From contig MAEO01000126.1 of assembly GCA_001683985.1 (NCBI GenBank), forward strand, positions 1,308 to 65,307: a DNA stretch of 64,000 nt, read 5' to 3'. The notes below the pieces were generated by a model. It had not been told where the DNA came from, did not search any database, and worked only from the letters and a program-made list of their open reading frames with translations. Of the stretch, positions 6,206 through 47,325 are shown piece after piece. Both the position numbers and the translations under genes were made by a program. Position 1 is the first letter of the stretch. The number at the start of each line of letters is the position of its first letter. Source of the stretch: Smithella sp. M82. Lineage in GTDB: Bacteria; Desulfobacterota; Syntrophia; Syntrophales; Smithellaceae.

Positions 6206-7645
6206 TCAGCTGTAAACATTTATAATGTTTAATTTTAAGGCCAATCTTAGAATGTCCCTGCATATTTTAAGACGGAAAGGAACCGCTAATATTTTCCCCC
6301 ACAGCAGACCAAATTTATCAATTAACTTGTTCCTTATCAACCAGCACTCCGCTTCTTTCTCCGCATATCTGAAAATATTATAACGATCTTTTTTGGTAAA
6401 ATCTTTTGTGTCGAATTGAACGCCAATGTCATCGGTGCATTCGTTATGGGTAAGAACATACTCGTAAGGCGCGTAGTATAAGTTTGCATTCCCTTCCACC
6501 CACTTTTCCAATCTGGTTGTAGGATAAGCAATGATCATTGAATATCTCGGTATATATATTTTATTTTCCTTGAAAAATTTAATCGACTTGATGACCTTTT
6601 CTTTATTATCTCCGGGAAGTCCTACAAGAAAAAAAGCTTTTGATATAATCCCGGCTTCGTTAACAGCTTTTATAGCCTTTTTAATCTGCTCCAATGTTTC
6701 CCCTTTTTTTATCATTTTCAAAACATCCGGATCAACCGATTCAATACCCATTGCCAGAAGTTTACAGCCCGCTTTTTTCATAAGTCTGGCTATTTCCGGC
6801 GTCATTTTATCGGCTCTTATTCCCTGAGGACAGTCCCATTCAATCTGCATGTCTTTCTCAATCAGCAGATTACAAAAATCAATGACTCTTTGTTTGTCGA
6901 AATTGAAAGTATCATCGGCTATCGTAAAATACTTTGTATTAAACTTTTTCATATTCAATTCTATTTCCTGCACAAGACTTTGTGCCGACCTTGGTCTGTA
7001 TTTCCTACCATGAATCAAATATGAACAACAGTAACTGCAATTATAAGGACATCCTCTGCTTGTAAAAAGAGGCAAGGTAAGGGTTTTCCCGACTCTGTAT
7101 TTATCAAGAGGAAACAATCCAAAATCAACAAACGGAAGGGAATCGAGATCGTTAATATGCTCAGGTTTTGGATTAAAATGTTTTGTGTTGCCATCCTTGT
7201 AACCAAATCCTTTCGTTTGTCTCATTTTTCCCTTATCAGGGAAAGCATTGACAAATTCTGTGATGGTTTTATCAGCCTCACCTACGCAGATATAATCAAC
7301 AGATTCCGGGTCTAGAGCTTTTTCCGGACACATGGTTGTATGAGGACCACCAATAACTGTTACTATACTTGAATCATTTTTTTTGACTATTTCGCATAAA
7401 TTTACCGCGTTTAAATAATCGAAACTCGAAGCTGAAAAACCGATTATATGAGGCTTGAAATCGGTTATTGCCGCTAGCAAATTATCATTCCCATATCCTT
7501 TTAAACGCAAATCCAGAATCATTGTTTTAAATCCGGCTTTAATCAGAATTGATGCCAGCAGTCCTAAACCTAAAAGGGGAGTTGTCGGATAACCGTAAAC
7601 ACTGCGTGCGTCCGGTTTTACAAGCATTACTTTTGTACAACTCAT
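6206..7645 (-). CDS. B12-binding-domain radical SAM protein
   Basis: An N-terminal Rossmann-like B12-binding region is followed by the CxxxCxxC cluster motif (GCPYNCSYCC). A 4-nt overlap with the upstream gene (7642-7645) indicates an operon. Confidence 0.85.
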   Translation of the reverse strand: MSCTKVMLVKPDARSVYGYPTTPLLGLGLLASILIKAGFKTMILDLRLKGYGNDNLLAAITDFKPHIIGFSASSFDYLNAVNLCEIVKKNDSSIVTVIGGPHTTMCPEKALDPESVDYICVGEADKTITEFVNAFPDKGKMRQTKGFGYKDGNTKHFNPKPEHINDLDSLPFVDFGLFPLDKYRVGKTLTLPLFTSRGCPYNCSYCCSYLIHGRKYRPRSAQSLVQEIELNMKKFNTKYFTIADDTFNFDKQRVIDFCNLLIEKDMQIEWDCPQGIRADKMTPEIARLMKKAGCKLLAMGIESVDPDVLKMIKKGETLEQIKKAIKAVNEAGIISKAFFLVGLPGDNKEKVIKSIKFFKENKIYIPRYSMIIAYPTTRLEKWVEGNANLYYAPYEYVLTHNECTDDIGVQFDTKDFTKKDRYNIFRYAEKEAECWLIRNKLIDKFGLLWGKILAVPFRLKICRDILRLALKLNIINVYS

Positions 7646-8595
7646 TTTATTTCCTTTACACTCGGGAAATATTTTTTTCTTCCTATAATCAGAACAGAAA
7701 CTGCTCCCATAATCAGATCCGCAATTAGTGTAATTAGTCTAATAATCATCGGGAAGATCAGAGCAAACTGAATTCCATCGGCATTTCTTAAAATAAGATA
7801 CATTGTTCCTTCTCTTACACCCAAACCACCCGGCACTATAAGAATCAAAAAGCCAATCACATCACCCAGCAACATTGCCGATGAAATAGAGATTATTTTT
7901 GAAATATTCAAATTGATTCCCATGCCCATTGCAATAAAACACCCCGCCAATCCCCAGAAAAAAGCGCCTATAATATAAAATAATTCCATGGATAGAATCC
8001 GGGATGTTGACAATTGTCTAAAAACGAACTTCTGTCCGCTTATTCGTGAAACCATATCCACAAATAATTTCATAATATTCCTGTTGAATATAAGCAAATT
8101 AACAATAATCAGCAAACATATTAATATTGTCAGTCCTGTTTGCAAATGATGCCAATCGTAACACATTATCAATAAAAAACTACCCATTAATAAAGATACC
8201 AGAACAGGTAATACAGCGGTCATGGCGTTAAGGTATAAAGCTGTCGTTTTCGGAACACCCTTTGATGCAAGCCAGTAGATTTGAAACACATATGACCATA
8301 GCTTTCCCGGTATGTATTTTCCCAACTGCGAAATATTAACCAAAGCTATGCTTTGCGTAAATTTTAACTTTTTCTGATTATCAAAGTAGTTTATCCCCAG
8401 ATGCCAGCTCAATGTCGTGCACAAATAATTGGCGATCATCATGAAAATACCCAAGACAATATATCCCCAATTTATTTGTAAAGGAAACGATCTGACGGAT
8501 TCCCAGTTCGCCCTAAACTCCCGGTAGAAGAATAATATGAACACCGCCACGACAGCAACCGAGAGCAATGATTTTAAGTATTTTTTATAAGCCAT
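7642..8595 (-). CDS. Polytopic membrane protein, lysyl-PG-synthase-TM/flippase-like family
   Basis: 317 aa with about 8 hydrophobic helices. The pattern ..GKYIPGKLW.. and ..VPGGLGVREG.. is typical of the UPF0104/LPG_synthase_TM family that often accompanies GT2 genes. Confidence 0.6.
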   Translation of the reverse strand: MAYKKYLKSLLSVAVVAVFILFFYREFRANWESVRSFPLQINWGYIVLGIFMMIANYLCTTLSWHLGINYFDNQKKLKFTQSIALVNISQLGKYIPGKLWSYVFQIYWLASKGVPKTTALYLNAMTAVLPVLVSLLMGSFLLIMCYDWHHLQTGLTILICLLIIVNLLIFNRNIMKLFVDMVSRISGQKFVFRQLSTSRILSMELFYIIGAFFWGLAGCFIAMGMGINLNISKIISISSAMLLGDVIGFLILIVPGGLGVREGTMYLILRNADGIQFALIFPMIIRLITLIADLIMGAVSVLIIGRKKYFPSVKEIK

Positions 8596-10754: not shown

Positions 10755-11970
10755 GTGTTTCCTTGTATTTTTCAATATAATATTCAGCGATAGCTTTCCA
10801 GTTGAATTTCGTCTGAATAAGCTCAAGTGATTTTCTTCCCATATCGATACGCAAGCTTTCATCTTCAATTAACCGACTGACTAAAACAGCTAATTTCTTG
10901 TAATCTCCTTCCGGGTGAAGAAAACCGTTAACACCATCGAACACTACAAGATCATTCCCCCCGACATTGGATGCGACGATAGGCCGGCTGCAAGCCATCG
11001 CTTCCGGCACAACCGTATTCAAGCCATCCGGCGGATTTTTCTCCGAAGGCATTAGAAATATATCACACGCCGAATAATAATCGGCCAATTCATTCGCAGT
11101 TACATAACCGATAAATATTACATGTCCGGAAGTATTGTCTTGATTTAAAATTTTCATGTACTCGTTTTTTAAATTACCATCTCCAATAATGGCCAATTTA
11201 ATATTTTTATGTCTTTCTGCAATATATTTTAAAGCCCGAAAAGCCGTGGAGAAACCTTTCTTGGGGATAAACCGACCAATCATTAAAAGCAATATATCGT
11301 CATCGTTTATCGCTAATTTCTCTCTGATAATTTTTCTTTTTTCAGCCGAAAAATATATTTTTCTATCATCAACTCCGTAAATAACATAATCAATTTTCTC
11401 CGAATCGATACCACTTCTGACCAATTCTTCTTTCAAATCGGCGCTATTACAGGATAGGTAATCGGATTTAGCAACAATTCTTGCCATGATTTTCCCTAAT
11501 ATTCCTGTGTTTCTAATGACTGTGACATCCGAGCCCGGAAACGAAGTAAGAATTCTCGTTCTCGAACCGGCAAGCCATTTCGCTCCGACCGCAATGAGTG
11601 TATTAGGGACTGCCCAGTGACAATGCAGAAAGTCATAATTTTCCCGTTTTAATAATCCGGCAAGTTTGATCACCCCGGCAATTATTAAAAATGGCGTCAG
11701 TAAAATTGTCGTTTTTGATATTTGGGTATCGTTTATCATAGAATTACCGTATCCGATCAAATGCCAGGATTTAAACGGCATATATCTATACTCGACTATT
11801 TTTATTTTATCTGCCTTGTCTGTTTTTCTGCGCTCACCTGAATACAATGGCGTAAATACGGTCAGCTCATTTCCTAAATCGGCATACGCCTTAGCAAGCG
11901 ATGCGATAAAGTTTGATCTCCAGTCCCCGATGAAAAAAGGATAAGAATGAGAAACAATGCATATTTTCAT
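10732..11970 (-). CDS. Family 4 (GT-B) glycosyltransferase
   Basis: The N-terminus MKICIVSHSYPFF..GD and the C-terminal ..LMPSEKNPPDGLNTVVPEAMACSRPIVASNVGG.. (E-x7-E region) are typical of GT4. Confidence 0.85.
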   Translation of the reverse strand: MKICIVSHSYPFFIGDWRSNFIASLAKAYADLGNELTVFTPLYSGERRKTDKADKIKIVEYRYMPFKSWHLIGYGNSMINDTQISKTTILLTPFLIIAGVIKLAGLLKRENYDFLHCHWAVPNTLIAVGAKWLAGSRTRILTSFPGSDVTVIRNTGILGKIMARIVAKSDYLSCNSADLKEELVRSGIDSEKIDYVIYGVDDRKIYFSAEKRKIIREKLAINDDDILLLMIGRFIPKKGFSTAFRALKYIAERHKNIKLAIIGDGNLKNEYMKILNQDNTSGHVIFIGYVTANELADYYSACDIFLMPSEKNPPDGLNTVVPEAMACSRPIVASNVGGNDLVVFDGVNGFLHPEGDYKKLAVLVSRLIEDESLRIDMGRKSLELIQTKFNWKAIAEYYIEKYKETHGKTDRS

Positions 11971-12016
11971 TTTATTGCCTGTGTTATCTTTTTAATCCAA
12001 ACGATATTTCAGTGGG

Positions 12017-12166
12017 TTTCCTCTGAAAATGCACATCTGGGTTATTGTTTATATTGTTATTTAAAAACTATCCTCTTCAAATCCCCCTCAATCCCCCTTT
12101 TCTAAAGGGGGGTGAGGGGGGATTTTTATCCTCCTTTGTGACGGCGTGCCGTCATGTGGGTTTCAT
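12017..12166 (+). repeat. Modular hairpin repeat, copy R1 (L arm + 1 hairpin module + R arm)
   Basis: The L arm is tttcctctgaaaatgcacatct..ttatttaaaaactatcc. The core is aaatccccctcaatccccc-ttttctaaa-ggggggtgaggggggattt. The R arm is ..cctttgtgacggcgtgccgtcatgtgggtttcat. R1 aligns with R5 and R6 over both arms. Confidence 0.85.
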
Positions 12167-12404
12167 AACCATATTTTATAAACCTGACATTAATTAAATA
12201 ACTTTACAAAAGCCATGCTTGCATTTAATAATAAAACAAAAATATTATCCAGAAATTAATAATATGGAAGCAATCAATACCGGATATTGTCACTAAATCC
12301 ATAAAGCACCGTTGCTTTTTTAATAAAATTATGTCAATTAAGTTCAGATGAATTTCAATTATCTTCCAGAACATATAGAACAGAACTAATTAATAAGGAA
12401 ACTC

Positions 12405-14483
12405 ATGCTGACAAAAGAAAACGGCTTTTCTTTTCCCATTATTTTCAAATTTCCCGAATTGCCGAAATATTTATTTATTTTCATTTCCCTTTTTATAGTT
12501 TTAATTTCAATTTACTCCAACAGTTTTTATGGGGAATGGCATTTTGATGATTATGCCAATATTGTCGATAATCCTCACATTCAGATGAAATCATTTTCCT
12601 GGCCGGAAATAAAACATTGCATATACGGTCTTGAACAAAAAAGACCGTCACGACCCTTGTCTTATTTAAGTTTCGCTTCCAACTATTATTTCCATGGGAA
12701 GGATGTATTTGGTTATCATGTGGTAAATTTTGCAATTCATTTCTTTGCATCCGTTTTCCTCTTTCTTTTTATTTACAACACATTGAAACTACCCCGACTA
12801 AAGAGTCAATATGAAAGTATTGCCTATCCCATAGCTTCCATCGCGACATTTTTCTGGGCTGTTCATCCTTTATGGGTCACTTCCGTCACTTATGTCGTTC
12901 AGCGAATGGCATCCATGGCCGGACTTTTTTACATTGCCTCCATGTATTTTTATTTAAAGGCACGCACGAATTCAAAATTTAAATATTCATTCTCATTCTT
13001 TATAATTAGTTTATTGTGCGGATTAGCTTCAATACTTACCAAAGAAAACGCAGCAATGCTGCCTGTCAGTATTCTTCTTTTCGATTTATTTCTTATAGCG
13101 GGCATTACCAGGCAAAATGTCATCAAATACGCAAAAATTGCGTTTCTGCCTTTATTAATTATTCTACTTATCGGTCTTATCTACGTTGATTTTTCCAACA
13201 TCCTGGACGAATATAAAATACGTGACTTCACTATGATCGAAAGAGTGATGACACAACCCCGTGTCATTTTATTTTATCTTTCCCTGTTATTTTATCCGAT
13301 TGGTTCACGATTAACTTTTCTTTATGATATTGATGTGTCCCGTTCCCTGCTCCAGCCCTGGACGACAATTCCATCAATATTGTTAATATTATTTATAATT
13401 ATTTTTGCCGTTTATATTGCCCGTAAGCGTCCCTTGATTTCTTTTTGCATTATTTTTTATTTTTTGAATCATCTTATTGAAGGCTCCATTTTCAATCTGG
13501 AATTAATTTATGAACATCGCAACTATTTACCTTCTATGCTTTTATTTATTCCTATTGCGGAATTCATAATTTACGTTATCGATTATTTTTCTTATAATAA
13601 AATCATTCAGTTTATAGTTGCTTTGGGCATAGCTATAATCATTACCGGAGAAGGCGACATCACCTACACTCGCAACAAAATAGTTTCTGATGATTTTCTC
13701 TTGTGGTTTGATAATATCGAAAAATCTCCGGCCCTGAGCAGACCGCACGCCAACACCGGCAGAATATATTTCATGTATAATCAAAAAGAAAAAGCGCTTC
13801 AGGAATACAAAAAAGCAATGGCTTTAAACAACTTTGGAAATAATGATATCCTGGCTATTCAACAATGCAACCTGGGCATATTGTATTTTGAAATGATGCA
13901 GGATGAGCCGGCTATGGAATGCTTCAGGAAGTCTTCTGCAATACTTCCTGAATATATACAAACCAATATTCATATAGCCAAAATAAAACTGCGCCATAAT
14001 AAAATCGAAGAGGCCAAACAAATAGTTTTAGATAAATTAAAAAAATACCGATCAGAGCCCAAGGTAATGGAACTATTAAGTCTTATACTGTTAAAAGACG
14101 GACAAATTAATGGCGCTCGATTTCTTGCCCGGAAACTTCTGGCAAAAGACCCGGATTCACTGCCCGCGCTGATGATCATGGCCGAAATCTGCCGCATAAA
14201 AAATAATTATCCGGTTGCCGTCTTGTTTTGGAAATCCGTCCGTTCGCTATCCCGGCAGAATGCTTTTGCCAATCTGGCGCTTATTGAATTGTACGCAAAG
14301 ATAAAAGATGAGAAAAAGTTGAATGCGGAAATTCGTCTCTTATATTACTTAAAAGGCTCCTTAAAATTAAGCGAATACATTCAAATGTTGAACAAAGATA
14401 AGAATCTAAATATATATGTTCCTAAACTCGAAAACTTTTCAGATGAAACCCACATGACGGCATGCCGTCACAAAGGAGGATAA
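12405..14483 (+). CDS. Polytopic membrane protein with C-terminal TPR repeats; GT-C (PMT/TMTC-like) glycosyltransferase candidate
   Basis: 692 aa with about 11-12 hydrophobic helices in aa 1-430. The first-loop motif WHFDDYANIVDNPHIQ resembles the DD/DE loop of PMT/TMTC-type GT-C enzymes. aa 450-650 contain TPR-like repeats. The last 12 codons (ETHMTACRHKGG*) are encoded by repeat copy R2. Confidence 0.55.
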   Translation: MLTKENGFSFPIIFKFPELPKYLFIFISLFIVLISIYSNSFYGEWHFDDYANIVDNPHIQMKSFSWPEIKHCIYGLEQKRPSRPLSYLSFASNYYFHGKDVFGYHVVNFAIHFFASVFLFLFIYNTLKLPRLKSQYESIAYPIASIATFFWAVHPLWVTSVTYVVQRMASMAGLFYIASMYFYLKARTNSKFKYSFSFFIISLLCGLASILTKENAAMLPVSILLFDLFLIAGITRQNVIKYAKIAFLPLLIILLIGLIYVDFSNILDEYKIRDFTMIERVMTQPRVILFYLSLLFYPIGSRLTFLYDIDVSRSLLQPWTTIPSILLILFIIIFAVYIARKRPLISFCIIFYFLNHLIEGSIFNLELIYEHRNYLPSMLLFIPIAEFIIYVIDYFSYNKIIQFIVALGIAIIITGEGDITYTRNKIVSDDFLLWFDNIEKSPALSRPHANTGRIYFMYNQKEKALQEYKKAMALNNFGNNDILAIQQCNLGILYFEMMQDEPAMECFRKSSAILPEYIQTNIHIAKIKLRHNKIEEAKQIVLDKLKKYRSEPKVMELLSLILLKDGQINGARFLARKLLAKDPDSLPALMIMAEICRIKNNYPVAVLFWKSVRSLSRQNAFANLALIELYAKIKDEKKLNAEIRLLYYLKGSLKLSEYIQMLNKDKNLNIYVPKLENFSDETHMTACRHKGG

Positions 14484-14648
14484 AAATCCCCCCTCACCCC
14501 CCTTTAGAAAAGGGGGGAAATCAAGCCCTGCCTTCTTTGCCCAAGAAGGGAACTCCCCCTTGAGAAAAGGGGGGAAATCAAGCCCTGCCTTCTTTGCCCA
14601 AGAAGGGAACTTCCCCCTTTAGAAAAGGGGGATTGAGGAGGATTTGAT
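14443..14648 (-). repeat. Modular hairpin repeat, copy R2 (R arm + 3 hairpin modules, L arm missing; internal 57-58-bp tandem duplication)
   Basis: R2 starts atgaaacccacatgacggcatgccgtcacaaaggagg, the reverse complement of the R1 R arm with 1 mismatch. The units at 14506-14562 and 14563-14620 are near-identical (agaaaaggggggaaatcaagccctgccttctttgcccaagaagggaact..). Confidence 0.85.
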
Positions 14649-14677
14649 AGCGTGATTTATAAATCACGCTATTTTTT
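14649..14677 (+). terminator. Rho-independent terminator (plus strand)
   Basis: AGCGTGATTT-at-AAATCACGCT perfect hairpin followed by aTTTTTT. There is no T-run on the opposite strand. Confidence 0.6.
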
Positions 14678-14698
14678 CAACAAATCCATTTTTCTATC

Positions 14699-15073
14699 TT
14701 ACAGATCCGGATAATACCATGTTCCGGTTTGGGCTTCGTCTAAAGTAGCACCTTTCACTGAATTTACCGTGATTAAAATATTGTTTCCGTCCGGGCCCGC
14801 TGTCACAGTATAATCATCACCGAGATCTAGGTCAGCTTGTACGGACGCCAGAACAGAACCAGGTGAAGTCGTTCCATTACCCCTCAACATCTGCGAAGCG
14901 TAATAATTACTCGCTCGCGCTTTTACCTCGGCAATCGCCGACTGAGCGGCAGCTCTTCGGGACTCTTCCATCATGCTAAGGTACCTGGGAATAGCAACCG
15001 CGGCTAAAATTCCTAAAATAACCAACACCGCAATGATTTCAATCAACGTAAAACCTTTTTCATTTTTTAACAT
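14699..15073 (-). CDS. Type IV major pilin (MshA-position)
   Basis: The 124-aa ORF has leader MLKNEKG|FTLIEIIAVLVILGILAAVAIP (G-1, F+1, E+5) and a small globular C-terminus. It lies next to the mshG/E-like genes and has a sigma54-type promoter upstream. Confidence 0.85.
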   Translation of the reverse strand: MLKNEKGFTLIEIIAVLVILGILAAVAIPRYLSMMEESRRAAAQSAIAEVKARASNYYASQMLRGNGTTSPGSVLASVQADLDLGDDYTVTAGPDGNNILITVNSVKGATLDEAQTGTWYYPDL

Positions 15074-15127
15074 TTTCCATCCCTCCTTATAGTTTTTTAC
15101 ATAATATTACTTTTTGCAGCCAACTGC

Positions 15128-15200
15128 TTCATCTGAAAATGCACATCTAAATCAAATCCCCCTCAATCCCCCTTTTTCTAAAGGGGGAAGTTCCTCTCTT
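15128..15200 (+). repeat. Modular hairpin repeat, copy R3 (short L arm + first hairpin; left half of a split copy)
   Basis: ttcatctgaaaatgcacatctaaatcaaatccccctcaatccccctttttctaaagggggaagttcctctctt matches R6 up to the ccctcttt arm of hairpin B. Confidence 0.75.
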
Positions 15201-15222
15201 CATAAATTTATATTTATAAAAA

Positions 15223-15238
15223 AGCAAAAGCTATGCCA
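15223..15238 (-). promoter_or_regulatory. Sigma54 (-24/-12) promoter candidate for the pilin gene
   Basis: The minus strand reads TGGCAT-AGCTT-TTGCT. The GG and GC are spaced exactly as in TGGCAC-N5-TTGCW, and the site is about 150 nt upstream of the pilin ATG (15073). Confidence 0.6.
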
Positions 15239-15414
15239 TTTCCGATACAATACAAACAATTTACTTGTATTAATTAATATAATTTCTAACTTATTCAATT
15301 ACTTCAATTTCTATTTATTGTCAACTTTAATATTTACATCAGTAATGATTCCTTAATAACACCATATTCAAAAAATTGATGTTTTATCTACAATTATTGT
15401 AGGCTTCTTAAACT

Positions 15415-15488
15415 AAAGAGGGCAGGGCCTGAGTTCCCCCCCCCCTTTTCTAAAGGGGGGTGAGGGGGGATTAAGGGGAGGGTGAAAG
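15415..15488 (+). repeat. Modular hairpin repeat, copy R4 (right half of split copy; C10 tract; degenerate R arm)
   Basis: aaagagggcagggcctgagtt-C10-ttttctaaaggggggtgaggggggatt matches R6 61409-61465. R4 has 10 C (15436-15445) where R6 has 6. Confidence 0.75.
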
Positions 15489-15555
15489 TTTATATTACCC
15501 ACTCACTTTGAGAAAGAACCAGATTCCAGATTTGTCTTATTTCTCTGTTTCCGTA

Positions 15556-16779
15556 TCAATGTTTTCCGGCCAGCTTTGTAAGATCCCACATCGGCAAAAA
15601 TATGGCTAAGGCAAAAAACCCGACAATCGCCGCCAACCCGACAATAAGAACAGGACCTATGGCATCGGAAAGACCTTTGATTGCATATTCAACTTCATCA
15701 TCGTAATGTTTGGCAATTTCACGCAACATTTCATCAATGTTACCCGATTCTTCACCAATCGCAATCATATCAATGACCATCGGGGTAAAATATTTTGCCG
15801 ATTTCAAAGGCGCTGAAATTCCAGCCCCTTCCTTAATTCGATCACGAATATGTTCAAATGATCTGGTCAGAGCTTCATTACCCATTGTGGCGGAAAGAAT
15901 AGTCAGCGATTGCATAATGGGAACACCGCTTGCCTGTAAAATAGCAAATATACTGGCAAAACGTGATAATGCCGCTTTCTTGAATAATTGTCCCACTATG
16001 GGAAGTTCCAATAAGAAACTATCCCTGACAAATTTGCCGTTTTTCGTTTTAAAATAATAAGCTAAGCCGAAAACAACTATTGCTGTTATAGTAAGAATTA
16101 TATACCAGTATTTGGCCAGAAAATTGTATAAAAACATGGCAATTCTTGTCGGCAGCGGCAAAACCAGCCCGGCAGTTTTAAAAACAGAAACAAATTGAGG
16201 TATTACAACAGTTAAAAGAACAACAAACGCTATACTTAAAGCAATAACAATTATCATCGGATATCTAACTGCCGATTTGATATCCGCTTTGACTTTCTCT
16301 TCGTGTTCGATGATGTAGATCAGACGATCTAAAACGATGGGAACATTTCCGCTCATCTCGCCTGCCTTGATCATATTACAGTAAAGACTGGAAAATATTT
16401 TAGGAAATTTCTCCAATGCCTCCGAAAAAGACAGACCCTGTTTGATATCCTGAATTATTGATAATATCGCTTTTTTTAAGCCGTGACTTTCAGTCTGGTT
16501 TGCCAAAATATCCAAGAGTCTGAGCATCGGCACGCCGGCAACCAGCATAGATCGTAATTGTTTTGTAAAAATAATCAAATCCGTCATTTTGACTCTGTCC
16601 GAACTAAACAGCGACTGCAACAGGCTTTCATCTCCTGATTTACTTTGTTCCTTTATTTTTGAAGGTATGAGATTGCGTGACATCAATATGGAATTTGCTA
16701 TTTGAATTGATTCAGCTTCCATGGTTCCGGAGACAGTATTTCCGCTGTCGTTAATTGCTTCGTAAAAATAGTTGGGCAT
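15556..16779 (-). CDS. mshG: Type IV pilus / T2SS platform protein (PilC/GspF family), MshG-like
   Basis: 407 aa with the duplicated GspF-domain pattern (..AGEMSGN.. and ..IGEESGN..) and three TM helices. It lies immediately downstream of the ATPase gene. Confidence 0.88.
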   Translation of the reverse strand: MPNYFYEAINDSGNTVSGTMEAESIQIANSILMSRNLIPSKIKEQSKSGDESLLQSLFSSDRVKMTDLIIFTKQLRSMLVAGVPMLRLLDILANQTESHGLKKAILSIIQDIKQGLSFSEALEKFPKIFSSLYCNMIKAGEMSGNVPIVLDRLIYIIEHEEKVKADIKSAVRYPMIIVIALSIAFVVLLTVVIPQFVSVFKTAGLVLPLPTRIAMFLYNFLAKYWYIILTITAIVVFGLAYYFKTKNGKFVRDSFLLELPIVGQLFKKAALSRFASIFAILQASGVPIMQSLTILSATMGNEALTRSFEHIRDRIKEGAGISAPLKSAKYFTPMVIDMIAIGEESGNIDEMLREIAKHYDDEVEYAIKGLSDAIGPVLIVGLAAIVGFFALAIFLPMWDLTKLAGKH

Positions 16780-24769: not shown

Positions 24770-24960
24770 ATGAACCCACATGGCGGTATCCGTCACAAAG
24801 GAGCATGAAAATCCCCCCTCACCCCCCTTTAGAAAAGGGGGGATGCCCTCTTTGCCCAAGAGGGGAACTTCCCCCTTTAGAAAAGGGGGATTGAGGGGGA
24901 TTTGATGAGGATAGTTTTTAAATAACAATATAAACAATAACTTAGATGTGTATTTTCGAG
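24770..24960 (-). repeat. Modular hairpin repeat, copy R5 (full length, 2 hairpin-A modules + hairpin B)
   Basis: The reverse complement aligns end-to-end with R6 and R1 (ctcgaaaatacacatctaagttattgtttatattgttatttaaaaactatcc ... ccgccatgtgggttcat). Confidence 0.85.
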
Positions 24961-25009
24961 TAAAAACATTACTTTTTAAAAAATATATTGATTTAATTAA
25001 TTGTATGTT

Positions 25010-26323
25010 ATGATCAAAAAACGTTTTTCTTCTTACGGCACAATACTATTTTTTCTATTTTTGTTGTGCCCGATAACGGCGTCCACAAATATTCCTGTCG
25101 GCGACGAAAAAATACCGGATTCAATAATTTCCCTGTCTTCCGGTTACGCTATTGTCGTTGATAAACAGCATCAAAAGATATATGTTTTTCAAAAGAACGG
25201 AACATTCTCCAAAGTATTTGAAGCTCCTTGCTCCACCGGACAAAATCCCGGCTCCAAACAGGCTGCCGGCGACAAAAAAACTCCCAATGGAATCTTTTTC
25301 GTGACAAAAATGCTGACAAACCCCGGCCCTCCCGAAATTTACGGTTCTATGGCTTTTTCTTTGGATTATCCGACTATTTCAGATCAAAGAGCAGGCAGAG
25401 ACGGTAATAATATCTGGATTCATGGCACCACAAAAACACTCCTGCCCACACAATCAAAAGGCTGTGTGGTCCTGCATGATAACGATCTCAAACGTCTTGC
25501 CAAATTCATTTATATTAACAAAACACCTGTCGTCATCTCAGAGTTTATAAAATGGGCGCCTCAGGATAAGATTCCACCATTAAAAAACGAATTGGAAAGA
25601 ATTTTAACATCATGGCATAAGGCTTTTGTCAAGAAAGATATTAAAGCAATCGATTCCCTTTATGCACCAGGGTCAGAAATCAAGGGCAAGAGACGTGAAG
25701 ATCTCAACCACAAAATTAAATGTCTGACAAATCTGGATCAACATTTTCTTTTGGAGCCAAGAGATGTATCCATTTTGCAGAAAAATAACAATGCAGTAAT
25801 TATTTTTGATCAGATTTATGCAGTTAACAGCAATAATTATTCTTTTCAGGGATTTTATAATAAACTGATTTTAGAAAAGATTAATAATAAATGGTACGTT
25901 ACCGATGACGCCACGCCGCCGCCAACGGTCAATAAAAATCTGGCTCAGGTAAGCAGTAAACAAACCGAAGATAAATCAAACTCCCAAGAGAAAGAGGCTA
26001 TAGAAAATTTGGTCAATAAATGGCTGTCCAACTGGAAATATGGAAAGATGAGAACTTACCGCAGTTGTTATGCGCCGGATTTCCAATCAAGGGGAATGAA
26101 CTTAAGCGACTGGGTTTCTTATAAAACTACGATACGCCAGAAAAGCGAAAATATTAGTATTCGCATTGACAAACTGCAAATATCAGTAAACAATGATACG
26201 GCCAGAGCTTCATTTATTCAGCATTACAGTTCATCATTGATCAACAGCAAGGGCAAGAAGACCCTTGAACTTAAAAAAATAGGTGATGAATGGAAGATAT
26301 ATAGAGAACTTATGAATAATTAA
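25010..26323 (+). CDS. Secreted L,D-transpeptidase (YkuD) with two NTF2-like-looking C-terminal modules
   Basis: A signal-like N-terminus is followed by the YkuD motif IWIHGTTKTLLPTQSKGCVVL (His..Gly-Cys). aa 338-438 form the module shared with 26403..27878 and 35507..37417. In-frame ATG at 25010 is preferred over TTG at 25001. Confidence 0.8.
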   Translation: MIKKRFSSYGTILFFLFLLCPITASTNIPVGDEKIPDSIISLSSGYAIVVDKQHQKIYVFQKNGTFSKVFEAPCSTGQNPGSKQAAGDKKTPNGIFFVTKMLTNPGPPEIYGSMAFSLDYPTISDQRAGRDGNNIWIHGTTKTLLPTQSKGCVVLHDNDLKRLAKFIYINKTPVVISEFIKWAPQDKIPPLKNELERILTSWHKAFVKKDIKAIDSLYAPGSEIKGKRREDLNHKIKCLTNLDQHFLLEPRDVSILQKNNNAVIIFDQIYAVNSNNYSFQGFYNKLILEKINNKWYVTDDATPPPTVNKNLAQVSSKQTEDKSNSQEKEAIENLVNKWLSNWKYGKMRTYRSCYAPDFQSRGMNLSDWVSYKTTIRQKSENISIRIDKLQISVNNDTARASFIQHYSSSLINSKGKKTLELKKIGDEWKIYRELMNN

Positions 26324-26402: not shown

Positions 26403-27878
26403 ATGAATAAAAGATTATTATTTATAAATTTATCTCTGATATTTTTGTTGTCTGCGCCTTCGATTTTTGCTGAAACCGGCAACACTTCTCAACAAACCGT
26501 CGCCGATATTCCTGCTAATACCGCAGAAGAATATTTTAACCGAGGCAACTTTTTTAGAAAACAAGGTAATTTCACTCAAGCTATTTCCGATTACACCAAC
26601 GCCATCAGAATTAATTCCAAGTATGCTAAAGCTTATTATAATCGCGGGAACGTTTATGTAAAACAAGGTGATTTTGCTCAAGCTATCTCCGATTACACCA
26701 AAGCTGTCGAAATAAACCCTGACTATTCAGAAGCTTACTACAATCGTGGAAATACTTACGAAAAACAAGGCAATCTCACCCAGGCAATTTCTGACTATTC
26801 CAGCGCTATTAAAATCAATCCTAAATATGCGGCAGCTTACTGTAATCGTGGAAATGCTTATCAAACCCAAGGTAATCTTCAGCAAGCTCTTTCAGATTAT
26901 AATAAGGCCATAGAAATCAATCCCCACTTTGCCGGTGTCTATGCCAACCGTGGAAATGTTTATCAGGCTCAAAACAATCTCCCGAAAGCTATTGCCGATT
27001 ACAACAAGGCCATAGAAATTGATCCTAAAGTTGCCGGTTTTTATGCGAATCGTGGAAATGTCTATCAATCTCAAGGCAATCTGCCACAAGCTATTAATGA
27101 TTACAGCAAAGCATTAGAAAAAAACCCAAGCGATAATACATCTCTCTACAACAGAGCGCTTGCTTATTACGGCATAGAACAATTCGGAAAATCATTAGAG
27201 GATTACACAGTAGCTATCAGCCAGAATCCAAGTAAAGAAGCTTATGAAAACTTTATTAGAAATGTTCCGGAAAAGAAATCGTCTGATACAGAAAATGTCA
27301 GAAACAAAATATTACTAACCTTTGAAGAAAAGATAAAGCCGGAAAAGAAATTGGCAATTTCCGCTGCCCCTGCTGTTACAGAAACCACTGCCGTCAGCGC
27401 GCCTACTGTAGCTTCCTCAGAACCGGCAACTACTGTTCCTGCTATAAAAGAACCTGCAACTGCCGCAGTTTCGGCGCCAGTTATTACTGCATCAGTCGCT
27501 CCTGAAAATCGAGTTCAGGTCAATAATAAACAAACTGAAACAACTACCTCTGAAGAAGATGTTCGGAATCTGGTAATAAAATGGGTCGCCAGTTGGGAAT
27601 CAGGTGATTTAGAAAGTTACCGCAGTTGTTACGCATCAGATTTCCAGTCAAAAGGAATGAATTTAAATAACTGGATAAAATATAAAAACAAGATACGGCA
27701 GAAAAGTAAAAATATAAGTATTCGAATTGATGGTTTGCAAATATCAGTAGATGAAAACTATGCCATGGCAAAATTTTCTCAAACTTACAGTTCTTCGATA
27801 CTAAAAGACAAGGGCACAAAAACATTGGAGCTAAAAAAAATAGGCAACAAATGGAAAATATATAGAGAAGTTATGTAA
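26403..27878 (+). CDS. Secreted TPR-repeat protein with shared C-terminal module
   Basis: Signal peptide ..SAPSIFAE. About 7 consecutive 34-aa TPR units follow (AxAYYNRGNxYxxQGNxxQAIxDYxKAIEINP), then an Ala/Thr/Pro-rich linker. The last ~100 aa are homologous to the C-termini of the L,D-transpeptidase and the TolC-like protein. Confidence 0.85.
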   Translation: MNKRLLFINLSLIFLLSAPSIFAETGNTSQQTVADIPANTAEEYFNRGNFFRKQGNFTQAISDYTNAIRINSKYAKAYYNRGNVYVKQGDFAQAISDYTKAVEINPDYSEAYYNRGNTYEKQGNLTQAISDYSSAIKINPKYAAAYCNRGNAYQTQGNLQQALSDYNKAIEINPHFAGVYANRGNVYQAQNNLPKAIADYNKAIEIDPKVAGFYANRGNVYQSQGNLPQAINDYSKALEKNPSDNTSLYNRALAYYGIEQFGKSLEDYTVAISQNPSKEAYENFIRNVPEKKSSDTENVRNKILLTFEEKIKPEKKLAISAAPAVTETTAVSAPTVASSEPATTVPAIKEPATAAVSAPVITASVAPENRVQVNNKQTETTTSEEDVRNLVIKWVASWESGDLESYRSCYASDFQSKGMNLNNWIKYKNKIRQKSKNISIRIDGLQISVDENYAMAKFSQTYSSSILKDKGTKTLELKKIGNKWKIYREVM

Positions 27879-35506: not shown

Positions 35507-37417
35507 TTACATAATTTCTTTATATATGTTCCATTTGCCGTTTATCTTTTTCAGTTCCAAAGTCTTCGTACCTGTATCCTTGAATATCGAGGAACTGTAA
35601 TTCTGGACAAATACAGCCAAAGCAGTATCTCCATCTAATGATATCTGCAAATCGTTAATGCTGATTTCTATGTCTTTACTTCTCTTTTGTAAATTATTTT
35701 TATACGATATCCAGTCATTTAAGTTTTTACCCTTCGACTGAAAATCTGACGCGTAACAACTGCGATAAGTCTTCATATCACCTGATTTCCAACTGGTTAG
35801 CCATTTACTTACTAATCTTTCTATATCTTCTTTAGGAACATATTTTGTTTCGATTTGTTTACTGCCGTCTGAAACTATATTTTTATCTGTAATGGCAGGA
35901 ACTGAAGCAACAACATCATTCCCTTTCGAATCTATAGGTTCCTCAGTTTTGGAAATAATAGTTTCTTCATAGTTGACTGCAACAGGCTCTTCATAACCGG
36001 CAGCAACAATCTTTTCATATCGCGGAACAATAGACTCCTCGTTCTTGGGAGCAAGGGCAACCTTTTTCTGCGCAACATTTTCAGCAAATATCAAAGTTTT
36101 CTTCAGACTGGCGTCTATGCGGCTTTCTTCCGGCCATTGCAAACCTAAAGTATGGACCAGTTTTCCCAAACCACTTAAAATACGATAGGAATCGTACATT
36201 TTATCATATTGAGCATTTATTAAATCTTTTTTCGCCGTTATCATTTCCGCCGATGTATCAAGTACGTCAAACAGTGTGCGACGTCCGATAGACCATTGCG
36301 AAACATAAGCATCCGCAGTTTTGGCGGTGGAAGCTACATATTGTTCAAGCTGCTTGATTCGTCTTTGGTCCGCCATATATTGATCATGGGATAGACGAAT
36401 AGACTGGATAGTCTGCAATTCAGTTTTCTTTGCTATTTCTTCTGCTTCATTTATCAAATAGAAAGTTTCTTTTATTCTCGCCTGATTATTAAATCCGTTG
36501 AAGATATTAAATGTAAGAGTCGCATTTGCCTGGAAATAATCCTGATAACTGTACCACGCCGAAGGTCCGTTTATTTCATTTCCCCAGGTGTAGCCGGCAC
36601 TGACATCCAGACTGGGGTAAACAAGCGCTTTTGCCGTTTTGTGCTGATATTTTCTTGCTTCGATATCTGCTCTGGCCGATTTCAATGTCGGGTGATTATC
36701 CAAAGCTATTTGTTCTGCTTCCTGCAAAGTAGCAGGAATTTCAGTATAAGAAGGTTCAGGCTTGATCGGGCTTGCCGGGAAATAGCCGATTACAGCTTTA
36801 TAATCGGTGCGCGCATTTTCAACATTCGCTTCAGTGACAATAAGATTGGACTGAGCCAAAGCCAGGCGTGCTTTGATCTGCTCCAGATCTACACCACGAT
36901 CTACCCCAGCCTGACTTCTCAACCTGATCTGGTCGAAGAAGCGTTCATGAATAAGCAAATTCTCTTTTGCCAGAGCATTCTGTTCCATTGCACGCAGATA
37001 GTTCAGGTAAACCTTGCATGTAAGTAAGGCGTTATTTTCTGATGCGCCCTGTAAAAGATACGCCTGTGACATCACGCGTGATTTTTGGCGATTCGTTTCC
37101 GAAAGTGTAGCTCCGCCTCTGAATAAATTCTGAGTTAGTCTCACATTCGCTTCATCCGGCCAGAAATGATCGCGAATCGGATTATTCTGATTAACATATC
37201 CGGCTGACAGAGACGAATCCACCATGGGGAAAAAGTCGGCCATCGCCTGTCGTACTTCCTGGTCCCTGGCCAATCGATTGTAGGCCACAGATGTTATGTC
37301 CGGATTATTTTGCAGAACTGACTTAACTGCATCCTGAAGTGTTTCCCCTCGTAAGTCCGTTCCAATAAAAACAAAAGCTAGAACGAAAATAACAATAACT
37401 TTAATGTCTCTTTTCAT
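35507..37417 (-). CDS. TolC-family T1SS outer-membrane protein (LapE-position) with ~206-aa C-terminal extension
   Basis: aa 1-430 are a typical TolC/AggA-type duplicated OEP pattern with a signal peptide. aa 431-529 form an acidic linker with YE(E/K) repeats. aa 530-636 form the module shared with 25010..26323 and 26403..27878. Confidence 0.85.
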   Translation of the reverse strand: MKRDIKVIVIFVLAFVFIGTDLRGETLQDAVKSVLQNNPDITSVAYNRLARDQEVRQAMADFFPMVDSSLSAGYVNQNNPIRDHFWPDEANVRLTQNLFRGGATLSETNRQKSRVMSQAYLLQGASENNALLTCKVYLNYLRAMEQNALAKENLLIHERFFDQIRLRSQAGVDRGVDLEQIKARLALAQSNLIVTEANVENARTDYKAVIGYFPASPIKPEPSYTEIPATLQEAEQIALDNHPTLKSARADIEARKYQHKTAKALVYPSLDVSAGYTWGNEINGPSAWYSYQDYFQANATLTFNIFNGFNNQARIKETFYLINEAEEIAKKTELQTIQSIRLSHDQYMADQRRIKQLEQYVASTAKTADAYVSQWSIGRRTLFDVLDTSAEMITAKKDLINAQYDKMYDSYRILSGLGKLVHTLGLQWPEESRIDASLKKTLIFAENVAQKKVALAPKNEESIVPRYEKIVAAGYEEPVAVNYEETIISKTEEPIDSKGNDVVASVPAITDKNIVSDGSKQIETKYVPKEDIERLVSKWLTSWKSGDMKTYRSCYASDFQSKGKNLNDWISYKNNLQKRSKDIEISINDLQISLDGDTALAVFVQNYSSSIFKDTGTKTLELKKINGKWNIYKEIM

Positions 37418-37470
37418 ATACCTCTCCTGTTGCTGATATAAAAAATCTTAAACAAATCTATCTTTACACC

Positions 37471-37800
37471 TTAAATAATTTCTTCTACAATTATGTTTTG
37501 GGAAGTCATTTTTTCCCGTATTTGTTCACGTTCAATTATTTTTTCCTGTGCCTTCTCCGGAAGCTCCGTAAAAAGTATTATATTTTTTTTCGTCAAAAGA
37601 TTAATCAGGTCTTCAAGAAGCCTAATTAAACCGGCATCAGAATGGGCCAGCAGATTTTCGAGGAATTTGCTGTCCATATTATCTTTTAAGAACTCAAGAA
37701 CCTCCTCGTCATTCAGCGACTTCTTTTCCGTTGCATCACGACCCGCAACAGTTCGCAATCCGATAATTTTCCCGTCAGCGGAACGTTCAATGTAAGGCAT
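37471..37800 (-). CDS. Small acidic hypothetical protein
   Basis: 109 aa, with no motif I recognise. The opposite-strand ORF (37493..37795) is Ser/Arg/Phe-rich and looks like an antisense artefact, so the minus frame is preferred. Confidence 0.4.
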   Translation of the reverse strand: MPYIERSADGKIIGLRTVAGRDATEKKSLNDEEVLEFLKDNMDSKFLENLLAHSDAGLIRLLEDLINLLTKKNIILFTELPEKAQEKIIEREQIREKMTSQNIIVEEII

Positions 37801-38022
37801 ATTATTTCATCCGAACATACATGAAGATATTACATTACGACATAGCCGCAAAACACATCTTCCATTGAAAAACTTATGGCTCCGATTTTTTTGCTTTTTG
37901 TCACTAAATTATTTTTGGTTCAATAGCATGTTTTTCAAAATATGTATACTTTTTTTTAAAAATGTGTAATCATAATAAGTGTTTTAAAAATAAAGAACCT
38001 TCATTTTTATTTTGAGTGATTT

Positions 38023-40191
38023 ATGAGTGAAGCAACCCTAATTACCAATAATTGGAATATTACTGAAAATCAAGACATTCATGAAGATCCTCTTTTGGAT
38101 TGTTTGGCAATACTAACCAAATTTTACGGTCGAAACACTTCAAAGGCAAGTTTAAGCGCCGGGTTGCCTCTTGTTCAGAATCGTCTTACAGTAGAATTGT
38201 TCTCCCGAGCTGCCAATCGGGCAGATCTCACATCACGTACACTGGAAAAATCTTTAGATGAGATCGGTTCTGTTCAGTTACCAGCCATATTGCTGCTTCA
38301 TAATCGCCAGGCCTGCATACTTGTAGAGAAAAACAGCGTCCTAAATGAGTATAAAATCATTTTACCGCAAAGCGGTAGTGGAGAAAAAATAATTACCAGA
38401 GATGAATTGGAAAAACTCTACGTTGGCTACGCAATTTTTGTCCGCCCCAAGTATATGAAAGGCATTAAATCAGTGGCCGACGAAAAATCAGCCGGATCAA
38501 AGCACTGGTTTTGGGGAACCATTTTTGAATCGTGGCGTATTTATCGGGATGTATTTTTGGCCGCATTTCTTATAAATGTATTTGGTCTGGTTGGTATTTT
38601 TTACGTTCTGAATGTCTATGACCGTGTAATTCCAAACAATGCGACAGAAACTCTCTGGGTTTTGTCCCTGGGGGTAGCAGTAATCTATATTTTTGCCGTT
38701 ATTATGCGCGCTTTACGGAGCTACTTCATTGATGAAGCAGCAAAGAAGACCAATCTGAAAATTTCCGCAATGCTTCTGCAAAAGATTCTTGATTTGAAAA
38801 TGGAAGCCCGTCCGCAATCAATAGGATCATTTACCAAGAACCTTCAGGAATTTGAGGGAATCCGCGATTTTATTACATCGTTTTCAATTACCGCCGTTAT
38901 CGATCTGCCCTTTACCCTATTAGGCCTTTTCGTCGTTTGGTGGATAGGCGGCTATATGGTTCTGGTTCACATTACAGCAATTGTCATACTAATCGTTTAT
39001 GCTTATTTTATCCAACCTCCCCTTCAGCAGGTTGTTGAAAAGACAATTAAAGCATCTGCTCAGAAAAACGCAATTCTTGTGGAAGGTGTAGCCGGCCTCG
39101 AAACAATAAAAATGCTGGGCGCTGAAGGCCAGATTCAAAGGGCGTGGGAAGAAGCCGTAAGCTATATATCTAAATGGAGCAACAAATCACGCATAATCTC
39201 ATCTTCCGTTCAGGATGTTTCGTATCTAGTGCAGAATATAACGACCGTGGCTGTTGTCGTTGTAGGTGTCTACATGATTACTGCCGGCGATCTTACTCAG
39301 GGGGGTCTTATAGCTTTGGTCATTCTTTCCAGGCAGGTAATTGCTCCTATAGCTCAAGTCGTAAATTTAGCAATGCGTTATCATCATACAAAGGAAGCGT
39401 TAAAAACATTAGACGAAATCATGAAACTGCCTGTCGAGAGGCCTGCCGGTAAAACATTTTTACCGAGGAAACGTTTTAATGGCGCCATCGGCGTAAAAAA
39501 CCTTATTTTTTCCTACCCCGGACAAACTACAAACGTTCTCAACAACATTACCCTGGATATCGCTGCCGGAGAAAAAGTGGGCATTATCGGACCGGTTGGT
39601 TCGGGCAAAACCACCTTGGGCAAATTGATTCTCGGTTTATACGAACCGATAAACGGCATGATTACTATGGACGGCACCGATATAAGACAAATCGATCCGG
39701 CAGAATTCCGGTACTTTTTAGGTTATGTTCCTCAGGATATCGTGCTTTTCAGGGGAACCGTACGGGACAATATCACAATGGGCGTATATGAAATTGACGA
39801 TCAGAATGTCGCGCTTGCGGCAGAAATGGCAGGCGTTGCGGATTTCGTAAAAAAACACCCTTCAGGATTTGACATGATGGTGGAAGAATTCGGCCGGGGA
39901 CTTTCCGGCGGTCAGCGACAGAGTGTTGCTATAGCACGTGCTCTTTTGCTCGATCCTCCTGTATTGGTTTTGGACGAACCGACAAGCAATATGGACAACC
40001 GGTCGGAAATCAGGTTAAAAAGCTATCTGGCAACGGCCGTAAAAGAAAAAACTGTAATATTGATTACGCATCGTGCTTCACTTTTGGATATGGTAAACCG
40101 TCTGATAGTTATAGACAACGGGACAATTATTGCTGACGGGCCGAAAGAATTTGTGCTGGAAGCAATGAAAAAAGGTCAGATTCGCCTTTAA
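38023..40191 (+). CDS. lapB: Type I secretion ABC transporter (permease/ATPase with N-terminal C39-like domain), LapB/HlyB-like
   Basis: 722 aa. The N-terminal ..DPLLDCLAILTKFYG.. is C39-like and is followed by 6 TM helices. Walker A is GPVGSGKTT, the signature is LSGGQRQ and Walker B is LVLDEPTS. Confidence 0.9.
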   Translation: MSEATLITNNWNITENQDIHEDPLLDCLAILTKFYGRNTSKASLSAGLPLVQNRLTVELFSRAANRADLTSRTLEKSLDEIGSVQLPAILLLHNRQACILVEKNSVLNEYKIILPQSGSGEKIITRDELEKLYVGYAIFVRPKYMKGIKSVADEKSAGSKHWFWGTIFESWRIYRDVFLAAFLINVFGLVGIFYVLNVYDRVIPNNATETLWVLSLGVAVIYIFAVIMRALRSYFIDEAAKKTNLKISAMLLQKILDLKMEARPQSIGSFTKNLQEFEGIRDFITSFSITAVIDLPFTLLGLFVVWWIGGYMVLVHITAIVILIVYAYFIQPPLQQVVEKTIKASAQKNAILVEGVAGLETIKMLGAEGQIQRAWEEAVSYISKWSNKSRIISSSVQDVSYLVQNITTVAVVVVGVYMITAGDLTQGGLIALVILSRQVIAPIAQVVNLAMRYHHTKEALKTLDEIMKLPVERPAGKTFLPRKRFNGAIGVKNLIFSYPGQTTNVLNNITLDIAAGEKVGIIGPVGSGKTTLGKLILGLYEPINGMITMDGTDIRQIDPAEFRYFLGYVPQDIVLFRGTVRDNITMGVYEIDDQNVALAAEMAGVADFVKKHPSGFDMMVEEFGRGLSGGQRQSVAIARALLLDPPVLVLDEPTSNMDNRSEIRLKSYLATAVKEKTVILITHRASLLDMVNRLIVIDNGTIIADGPKEFVLEAMKKGQIRL

Positions 40192-40205
40192 CAGGAGAGC
40201 TCGGT

Positions 40206-41657: not shown

Positions 41658-41699
41658 AAAAATATTCAAAAAATTGTTTTCATATCGCGTAGGATTTAT

Positions 41700-42338: not shown

Positions 42339-42414
42339 TTTTTTGCCCCACTGAAAATTCAAGACAGCCAAAACAATAATTAGAAAAAACGGCACAATAT
42401 TTTATGTATTTATC

Positions 42415-42448
42415 AAAAAAAGTCGCGAAGGAAAAACTCCTTCGCGAC
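42415..42448 (-). terminator. Rho-independent terminator of the adhesin gene
   Basis: The minus strand reads GTCGCGAAGG-agttttt-CCTTCGCGAC followed by T7, 31 nt after the stop at 42480. Confidence 0.7.
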
Positions 42449-42479
42449 AACATGCAATAAAGATTATTATTAAAAAATT

Positions 42480-46337: not shown

Positions 46338-46424
46338 GATTTTTTCTCCTTTATTATATTAATTTATAATTATATTTTTATATTAATTTGAGTTATAATT
46401 TACACATTCTTATATGCAAGTCTA

Positions 46425-47307: not shown

Positions 47308-47325
47308 TTTAACAGGAGGCTTTAA

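Follow-up and report, generated by a model that had tools for sequence, protein, structure and literature searches.

The mannose-sensitive haemagglutinin (MSHA)-like type IV pilus cluster of Smithella sp. M82 lies within a 64,000-nucleotide stretch of contig MAEO01000126.1 (positions 1,308 to 65,307 of assembly GCA_001683985.1; hereafter the window), all positions below being counted from its first letter. The cluster is read from the minus strand and comprises, going upstream from its sole pilin gene, (i) the gene of an mshG-type platform protein; (ii) an ATPase gene with the c-di-GMP-binding N-terminal domain of MshE; and, further upstream on the same strand, (iii) an ExeA/MshM-like AAA_22 gene, a secretin gene, two small open reading frames (ORFs), and a PilM-like gene. 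The gene mshG and the pilin gene, whose homologues carry the JGI label 'MSHA pilin protein MshA', are separated by a single 482-bp intergenic region, which holds an AT-rich segment of 214 bp (15201-15414) with a sigma54-type promoter and, on either side of it, two G/C-hairpin repeats, R3 and R4. Comparison with related loci makes it likely that this segment is an ancestral module that regulates the MSHA-like pilin gene of a Smithella lineage, that the adjacent activator gene has been deleted, and that the repeats are insertions.

All comparative loci, denoted here by L numbers, were anchored on mshG. A scan of species-representative genomes with the MshG protein retrieved 80 loci, which belong without exception to Smithella, Smithellaceae or other Syntrophales; the best match is that of Smithella sp. 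SDB_sulfate1 (L001; 92% identical in amino acids and 88% in nucleotides). By blastn, window positions 15201/4-15415 are collinear with the stretch that runs, in the relatives, from the last codons of an activator gene to just past the promoter, with identities of 84% (L001), 88% (L081), 89% (L090), 87% (L097), and 79% (L085 and L093). The alignment boundaries are constant in these relatives (15201/15415), the flanking order of mshG and pilin is conserved, and none of these relatives with the orthologous segment carries a repeat of the R family. The low G+C content of the segment, 17-21%, is likewise native to the pilin upstream region of the relatives. Because the segment is collinear in relatives that are repeat-free, the repeats are the newcomers and the AT-rich DNA is the resident.

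The initial annotation, made from the letters of the window, had proposed the converse, namely a 214-bp AT-rich insertion, carrying the sigma54 promoter, into the hairpin-B loop of one R6-like element that was thereby split into R3 and R4. Its positions and its description of the composition are accurate: R3 ends with ...gaagttcctctctt at 15200, R4 starts with aaagagggcagggc at 15415, and the complete hairpin B of R6 reads cccctcttt-ggc-aaagaggg, with only ggc in the loop, so that two complementary halves breaking at the hairpin-B arms do enclose a compositionally distinct segment. Nevertheless, the same 214 bp, including the last activator codons, are collinear with the native region in at least six repeat-free relatives, the AT-richness is native there, both halves start at a natural terminus of the repeat unit, and the repeat family is absent from ~100 related loci outside the window lineage, which together leave an insertion of the AT-rich segment extremely improbable.

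The activator gene that terminates at this segment encodes 440 aa and is located, in L001 (7354-8676), L003, and most other relatives, between the genes for MshG and the pilin. Its product comprises (i) a Sigma54_activat AAA+ domain (E = 3.6e-74) with the sigma54-contact loop GSFTGA; (ii) AAA_lid_14; (iii) a Fis-type helix-turn-helix (HTH_8); and (iv) an N-terminus whose first ~70 residues form two hydrophobic, predicted transmembrane helices, whereas no receiver (REC) domain was found by domain scan. No partner kinase gene is present in the pilus cluster. The activator gene occupies this place in 45 of the 61 scorable loci and, by protein look-ups, in all 17 further close relatives (L085-L101; MshG 87-94% identical). 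In the 64 kb of the window, tblastn detects neither a homologue of this activator nor any other sigma54 AAA+ domain.

The junctions of the loss are preserved at both ends. On the pilin side, the last 12 nt of the activator gene are retained next to the palindrome described below and are followed by ctacaataa with the old stop codon, the orthologues agcttaagaagcctacaataa in L090 and agtataagaaatctacaataa in L001 encoding ...(S)(I/L)RNLQ-stop. On the other side, homology to the ancestral mshG-activator spacer ends ~28 nt past the mshG stop codon; seen from the repeat, homology to L001 resumes at ~15528, past the R4 tail. Between these points, ~1.4 kb of L001 (7253-8654, spacer plus activator gene) is replaced in the window by 113 bp, namely R4 and its tail (15415-15527). 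As judged from this alignment, a deletion of ~1.4 kb has removed the activator gene, except for its last 12 nt, from the window lineage and has spared the palindrome and the promoter (Table 1). As for a relocated copy, the activator homologues P0002, P0003, and P0007 (88-89% identical to that of L001) were considered, and all lie in the canonical mshG-activator-pilin context.

Table 1. Features of the pilin control region and its surroundings (positions in the window)
Feature	Position	Strand	Basis or remark
R2, repeat with internal 57-bp tandem duplication, beyond the pilin terminator hairpin	14436-14650	plus	
Type IV (MSHA-like) pilin gene, 124 aa	14699-15073	minus	ORF and prepilin N_methyl / GFxxxE motif
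Shine-Dalgarno AAGGAGGG	15081-15088	minus	7 nt 5' of pilin ATG; read directly, conserved in relatives
R3, one short-type unit: left end, C5/G5 hairpin, 5' arm of hairpin B	15129-15200	plus	repeat alignments
Predicted transcription start	15212	minus	12 nt downstream of -12 C; from usual sigma54 geometry
Sigma54-type -24/-12 element TGGCAT-AGCTT-TTGCT (TGGCATAGCTTTTGCT)	15223-15238	minus	unique in window
AT-rich palindrome-promoter spacer	15239-15387	minus	orthologous to same spacer in relatives
Perfect 15-bp palindrome CTACAATAATTGTAG, candidate upstream activating sequence	15388-15402	minus	single copy in window
Remnant of activator gene 3' end, agtttaagaagc then ctacaataa with old stop	15403-15414	minus	aligns with L090 and L001
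R4, one long-type unit with diverged repeat-type tail, occupying the deletion scar	15415-15527	plus	repeat alignments
C10 homopolymer, 5' arm of R4 hairpin	15436-15445	plus	read directly
Retained first ~28 nt of ancestral mshG-activator spacer	15528-15555	minus	identical or near-identical to L001 7225-7252
mshG/pilC-type platform protein gene	15556-16779	minus	T2SSF domains; last gene of upstream pilus assembly operon

The promoter element is oriented toward the pilin gene, departs at one position from the consensus TGGCAC-N5-TTGCW, and keeps the 10-nt spacing between the GG at -24 and the GC at -12. The pattern TGGCAYN5TTGCW has this single match in the window against 0.21 expected by chance, and the identical 16-mer stands at the orthologous position in L001, L003, L081, and L104. 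Across the comparative set, 29 of the 45 loci with the activator gene have a -24/-12 element ahead of their first pilin gene, compared to none of the 15 other loci without it, at a background rate of 0.018 relaxed motifs per 400 nt. A sigma70 scan of the pilin strand of the mshG-pilin intergenic region returned no candidate promoter. The sigma54 promoter called in the initial annotation is well supported by comparative evidence, and the distance of about 150 nt given there agrees with the 149 nt that separate the 3' end of the motif from the pilin ATG. The closest relatives with the same or a near-identical motif (L001, L003, L007, L008, L081) have 79-90 nt at this place, the distance in the window being longer because R3 is inserted in the leader, where it substitutes for 12 nt of the leader of L081 and L090. 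A side case is the locus L010 (MFD00709.bin.2.75; 7385-8573 and 8812), with an activator gene that aligns as two overlapping pieces, a pilin ORF cut short at 53 aa, and a -24/-12 spacing smaller by one nt; the locus is either decaying or affected by homopolymer errors of a long-read assembly.

Given a start near 15212, the predicted pilin leader has ~139 nt and includes R3, as the initial annotation had predicted. Folding of the leader with and without R3 indicates that the repeat forms a 9-bp G/C hairpin in the predicted RNA, a structure of a type that the shorter leader of the relatives lacks. Because the leader as a whole has no unusual folding energy (z = -0.64) and its Shine-Dalgarno sequence is unpaired in the centroid fold, leaving the ribosome-binding site open, no regulatory role is proposed for R3, apart from a possible effect on mRNA stability.

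The second conserved element of the segment is the palindrome, located ~150 bp upstream of the -24 element. Exact copies are present in ~30 related loci, in every case between the activator and pilin genes, and extend to relatives with only 55% MshG identity. The offset from palindrome to motif is 165 nt in the window and mostly 157-176 nt in the relatives (full range ~146-205). Loci with two phased copies are L014, L017, and L048, with a spacing of 21 bp, and L060 and L061, with a spacing of 32 bp; these distances correspond to two and three helical turns, respectively. Sixty-one of the loci have a pilin gene locatable downstream of mshG, 45 with the activator and 16 without it. Motif and palindrome accompany the activator together in 27 loci, the palindrome only in 10, and the motif only in 2, while 6 have neither; the activator-less loci include one with both (the window), one with the palindrome only (L082), none with the motif only, and 14 with neither. 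Among the latter class, the palindrome is thus restricted to two lineages of recent loss. A dyad-symmetric site ~80-200 bp upstream of a -24/-12 element, co-occurring with the activator, is what an enhancer of this promoter class looks like, and we infer from the comparison that the palindrome is the candidate binding site of the pilus-linked sigma54 activator. In most loci, the activator stop codon falls inside the palindrome; in L061, and in L060 by the same reckoning, both copies stand well downstream of the stop codon, and conservation there is therefore not a by-product of coding. Within the spacer, the block AGTTGACAA (15318-15326, minus strand) is conserved in five of six aligned relatives and could be a site for integration host factor or another architectural protein, or a weak -35 element.

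The repeats that flank the module belong to a family whose core pattern gives 26 matches in the 64 kb, against 0.23 expected, in six clusters that are all intergenic. The copies other than R3 and R4 lie at ~12018-12170, 14436-14650, 24770-24960, and 61299-61505. When the halves of R6 are aligned to each other and to R3 and R4, the family resolves into an inverted dimer of a ~60-nt unit, which comprises AAAGAGGG, an optional CAGGGCYT, GARYT, a C run, a T/A-rich loop, a G run, and TGAGGGGGGATT, hairpin B being formed by two abutting unit termini. R4 accordingly displays the 3' arm of hairpin B, a linker, a C10/G6 hairpin, and an outer stem arm. R3 and R4 mimic a split element because each ends at a natural unit terminus. 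The hairpin-B arms in which the initial annotation saw one reconstituted R6-like element are real, but no perfect R6 results, since R3 lacks ~35 nt of the R6 left end and the R4 right end differs; the start of R4 is as annotated, whereas its end, placed at 15488, extends as a repeat-type tail to ~15527. To judge by the unit anatomy, two monomer insertions in inverted orientation would yield the observed R3/R4 picture without coincidence. Conceivably, R3 and R4 could instead have been two full dimers, each later cut back by a deletion ending in the hairpin-B loop, a route of four events compared to two insertions plus the deletion for the monomers.

The family behaves as an insertion also at R1, which is a clean ~145-bp insertion relative to L090 (window ~12018-12160, filling a 15-bp gap of L090). 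Multiple short hairpin copies, confined to intergenic regions and present or absent at orthologous sites, give the family the attributes of miniature inverted-repeat transposable element (MITE)-like or repetitive extragenic palindromic (REP)-like elements. It resembles REP/BIME, BOX, and the MITE-like Correia elements in that its members are short, non-coding, G/C-hairpin-rich, and modular, insert cleanly at empty sites, stand in leaders or after genes, and undergo internal duplications and deletions. It differs from them in being found, among the ~100 related loci, only in the window lineage and in having no Rfam match at threshold: a scan of 11900-15700 returned sub-threshold chance matches only, which places the repeats outside the known RNA families. 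No convincing target-site duplication is visible at the R1 or R3 junctions, domain scans of the window show no transposase, and the repeat core has no match in viral contigs. Beside R1, the window (12001-12295) lacks a 458-aa PMT_2-like gene that L090 carries (10782-12361) between a TPR-membrane gene and a GT4 glycosyltransferase gene, the third difference in gene content that adjoins a repeat copy.

The same architecture is found outside the assembly of strain M82. The activator-less arrangement recurs in the Logan assemblies L102 and L103 (99.7% identical to the window), and a JGI metagenome contig (L104) runs from mshG through R4, the palindrome, the promoter, R3, and the pilin gene into the start of R2; given this persistence in three independent datasets, the arrangement is not an assembly artefact. 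Samples that hold this lineage include those behind SRR10190798/99 and JGI 3300018772. Along a stretch of ~570 nt, L104 is set apart from the window by a single substitution and by homopolymer-length changes at four places (among them C10 against C6), while the 16-mer, the palindrome, and the 165-nt spacing are intact in both. Their pilin genes have identical 5' halves and mosaic 3' halves (83% identity in amino acids), both ORFs being intact. Compared to the window (14708-14980), the L104 pilin gene (1200-1520) contains a 63-bp insertion, with the old 3' end (ccaaaccggaacatggtattatccg) duplicated after the new stop codon; from its sequence, the variable region looks like the product of cassette-type recombination. 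Intact and diversified pilin ORFs in strains that share the deletion suggest, at the sequence level, that the gene is still in use. The contigs of L102 (3579) and L103 (3004) end inside the R4 hairpin at the G/C run (window 15443), and the repeat family evidently fragments short-read assemblies of the window lineage.

The presence of inverted repeat copies on both sides of the promoter raises the question of an invertible on/off cassette of the fimS type. Arms at 15155-15187 and 15440-15472 do form inverted repeats of 33 nt, 73% complementary, that bracket the module. However, the segment keeps its ancestral orientation in L104 as in the window, the arms are imperfect, the other copies of the family show no such arrangement, and no recombinase gene is seen near the locus in domain scans; inversion at this site is accordingly scarcely credible.

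The C10 tract of R4 had been singled out in the initial annotation as a candidate slipped-strand hotspot at the position where enhancer-binding proteins usually act. The tract itself is as described, with 10 nt where R6 has 6, and the same C run has 6 nt also in R1, R2, R5, and L104, so that its length does differ between strains, with the proviso that assemblies may hold sequencing errors at such runs. Its supposed position does not hold: the conserved candidate enhancer is the palindrome, and the C tract lies 34 bp beyond it, away from the promoter. Since the tract lies outside the palindrome-to-promoter module, a change in its length cannot alter the enhancer-promoter spacing; it is found in none of the places typical of phase-variable tracts, i.e., an ORF, the core promoter spacer, or the interval between phased sites. 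A slipped-strand switch that phase-varies pilin expression would draw on the difference from L104 and from all other repeat copies and on the prevalence of homopolymer-length changes (four of the five window-L104 differences over that stretch). Nonetheless, the location of the tract within a lineage-specific repeat, the sequencing error that can underlie homopolymer differences between assemblies, and the fact that the two Logan contigs simply break at the run render such a switch very unlikely.

The fate of a sigma54 promoter after loss of its activator can be followed in a second lineage, here called D17 (L002, L082, L084), which is an outgroup to the window and L001 (84.5% nucleotide identity to the window, compared to 88% between the window and L001). 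The activator gene of D17 has been lost with a different junction, in which the mshG stop codon is followed by 3 nt and the palindrome, and the loss is by parsimony independent of that in the window lineage, as far as the sequences tell. The same activator gene of the same locus is missing, and the palindrome is kept as a relic. In D17 the -24/-12 element has decayed, and point changes in the former leader have given rise to TTGACA-16-TATATT, with 11 of 12 matches to the sigma70 consensus; the decay is expected if the activator was the cognate partner of the sigma54 promoter. Whereas D17 has switched promoter class, the sigma54 module of the window lineage is untouched and no sigma70 replacement is visible. 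Sequence comparison thus indicates that a pilus-dedicated, membrane-anchored sigma54 activator has been lost at least twice in Smithella lineages, with opposite outcomes. Another small palindromic element (gtcatttcgaccgcagggagaaatctaagatttctc...ttcgaaatgac) stands in D17 between the relic palindrome and the pilin gene (L082 690-790, L002 6260-6318, L084 110-200), the L002 contig ending inside it.

Taken together, the evidence favours the following sequence of events as the probable explanation of the locus. In the relatives, the palindrome, the ~150-bp AT-rich spacer, and the -24/-12 promoter would work with the dedicated adjacent activator. In the window lineage, a ~1.4-kb deletion took the activator gene, halting 12 nt short of the palindrome; R4, one unit of the lineage-specific repeat, occupies the scar, and R3, a second unit in inverted orientation, was inserted into the leader of the pilin mRNA. 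Continued use of the promoter would require an activator from another part of the genome; if the promoter is no longer used, transcription would reach the pilin gene by read-through from mshG. The promoter itself is of an ordinary kind, in an unusual evolutionary state.

Several points weigh against this history or parts of it. No sigma54 activator is encoded in the window, so that activity of the promoter at present is only putative. The palindrome overlaps the activator stop codon in most loci, and coding constraint could explain part of its conservation, only L060 and L061 clearly separating the two. Outside the variable region of the pilin gene, the window and L104 are almost identical; the deletion may thus have happened too recently for an inactive promoter to show decay, and selection is not proven by the intact motifs. 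Finally, the window holds no other isolated half-unit of the repeat, and the derivation of R3 and R4 from two monomer units has internal homology as its sole basis.

As for the present state of the promoter, it may still be in use in the window lineage, but the sequence does not decide between two outcomes, both of about the same rather low probability. Tentatively, the pilin gene may have been handed to another enhancer-binding protein encoded elsewhere, i.e., activation in trans, which would amount to regulatory rewiring in progress. A different outcome, possible but doubtful, is that the promoter is a recently orphaned, silent relic, the pilin gene being either transcribed by read-through of the mshI-to-mshG operon across R4 or silent and decaying. 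The missing cognate activator gene is compatible with a relic, as is the lack of any other sigma54 activator within 64 kb; the interval from mshG to the pilin gene has no predicted intrinsic terminator; the near-identity of the deletion-sharing strains points to little time for decay; and D17 demonstrates that the promoter can become dispensable after activator loss. Against a relic, no sigma70-type replacement is detectable on the pilin strand of the intergenic region, unlike in D17, the palindrome, its spacing, and the 16-mer are intact in both strains, and the pilin ORF is intact and has undergone diversifying recombination after the deletion.

Control of the type IVa major pilin gene by PilR/PilS and RpoN is established in Pseudomonas aeruginosa, Myxococcus xanthus, and Geobacter sulfurreducens. 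The Smithella module shares with these systems a pilin promoter of the -24/-12 type, an upstream site at a distance of 100-200 bp, and an AAA+ activator that has a Fis-type HTH and is encoded next to the pilin gene in the pilus cluster. In contrast to PilR/PilS, the activator of the relatives has no receiver domain and no partner kinase and bears two N-terminal transmembrane helices, the assembly gene set is MSHA-like, with an MshEN ATPase and an ExeA/MshM-like AAA_22 gene, and not pilBTCMNOPQ, and the activator gene is deleted in the window lineage. Functionally, the module follows the PilR-RpoN paradigm, but the lack of a receiver domain and of a kinase places its activator outside the PilR family; the PilR-type control suggested in the initial annotation fits neither the relatives nor the window, in which there is no activator at all. 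Compared to the MSHA locus of Vibrio and Shewanella, the cluster preserves an assembly operon ending in mshE and mshG, followed by separately promoted pilin gene(s), and the c-di-GMP N-domain of MshE, but its secretin scores above threshold for PilQ and not for MshL, and no mshB/C/D minor pilin genes follow the pilin gene. Sigma54 control is not known from the msh locus of Vibrio.

Sigma54-controlled pilin genes are textbook knowledge, and the promoter as such is not new. A literature search returned no description of the activator-palindrome-pilin module or of the repeat. What the comparison adds is (i) a Syntrophales-wide MSHA-like cluster with its own receiver-less, membrane-anchored sigma54 activator, a near-invariant 15-bp palindrome, and a phased promoter; (ii) a natural experiment, in the window and D17 lineages, on the fate of a sigma54 promoter after deletion of its dedicated activator; and (iii) a lineage-specific hairpin repeat present at every rearranged site of the locus. 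Such small, presumably mobile repeats would mark, and perhaps mediate, the deletions of the activator gene, a second pilin gene, and a glycosyltransferase-like gene. Smithella species are key syntrophic degraders of alkanes and propionate, and their pili are discussed for cell-cell contact; that some strains have lost a pilus regulator is of practical use when Smithella transcriptomes are read.

Downstream of the pilin gene, the hairpin agcgtgatttataaatcacgct (window 14650-14681) is also kept in L001. Relatives display one or two additional tandem pilin paralogues after the first pilin gene and this terminator hairpin (L001 9451-9825), L097 having three pilins in total; the window holds only the repeat R2 at this place. 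Elsewhere in the window (35507-49284), a c-di-GMP-controlled Lap-type adhesin system comprises (i) an OEP outer-membrane protein, a C39-ABC exporter, an HlyD protein, and a LuxR-type regulator; and (ii) a 1285-aa VWA/RTX adhesin, a BTLCP (LapG-like) protease, and a LapD-like GGDEF-EAL receptor, so that, counting the pilus with its MshEN ATPase, there are two attachment systems linked to c-di-GMP within 30 kb. In addition, a Cds6_C NTF2-like domain forms the C-terminal end of three otherwise unrelated proteins of the window, namely a YkuD L,D-transpeptidase (25001-26323), a TPR protein (26403-27878), and the OEP outer-membrane protein (35507-37417).

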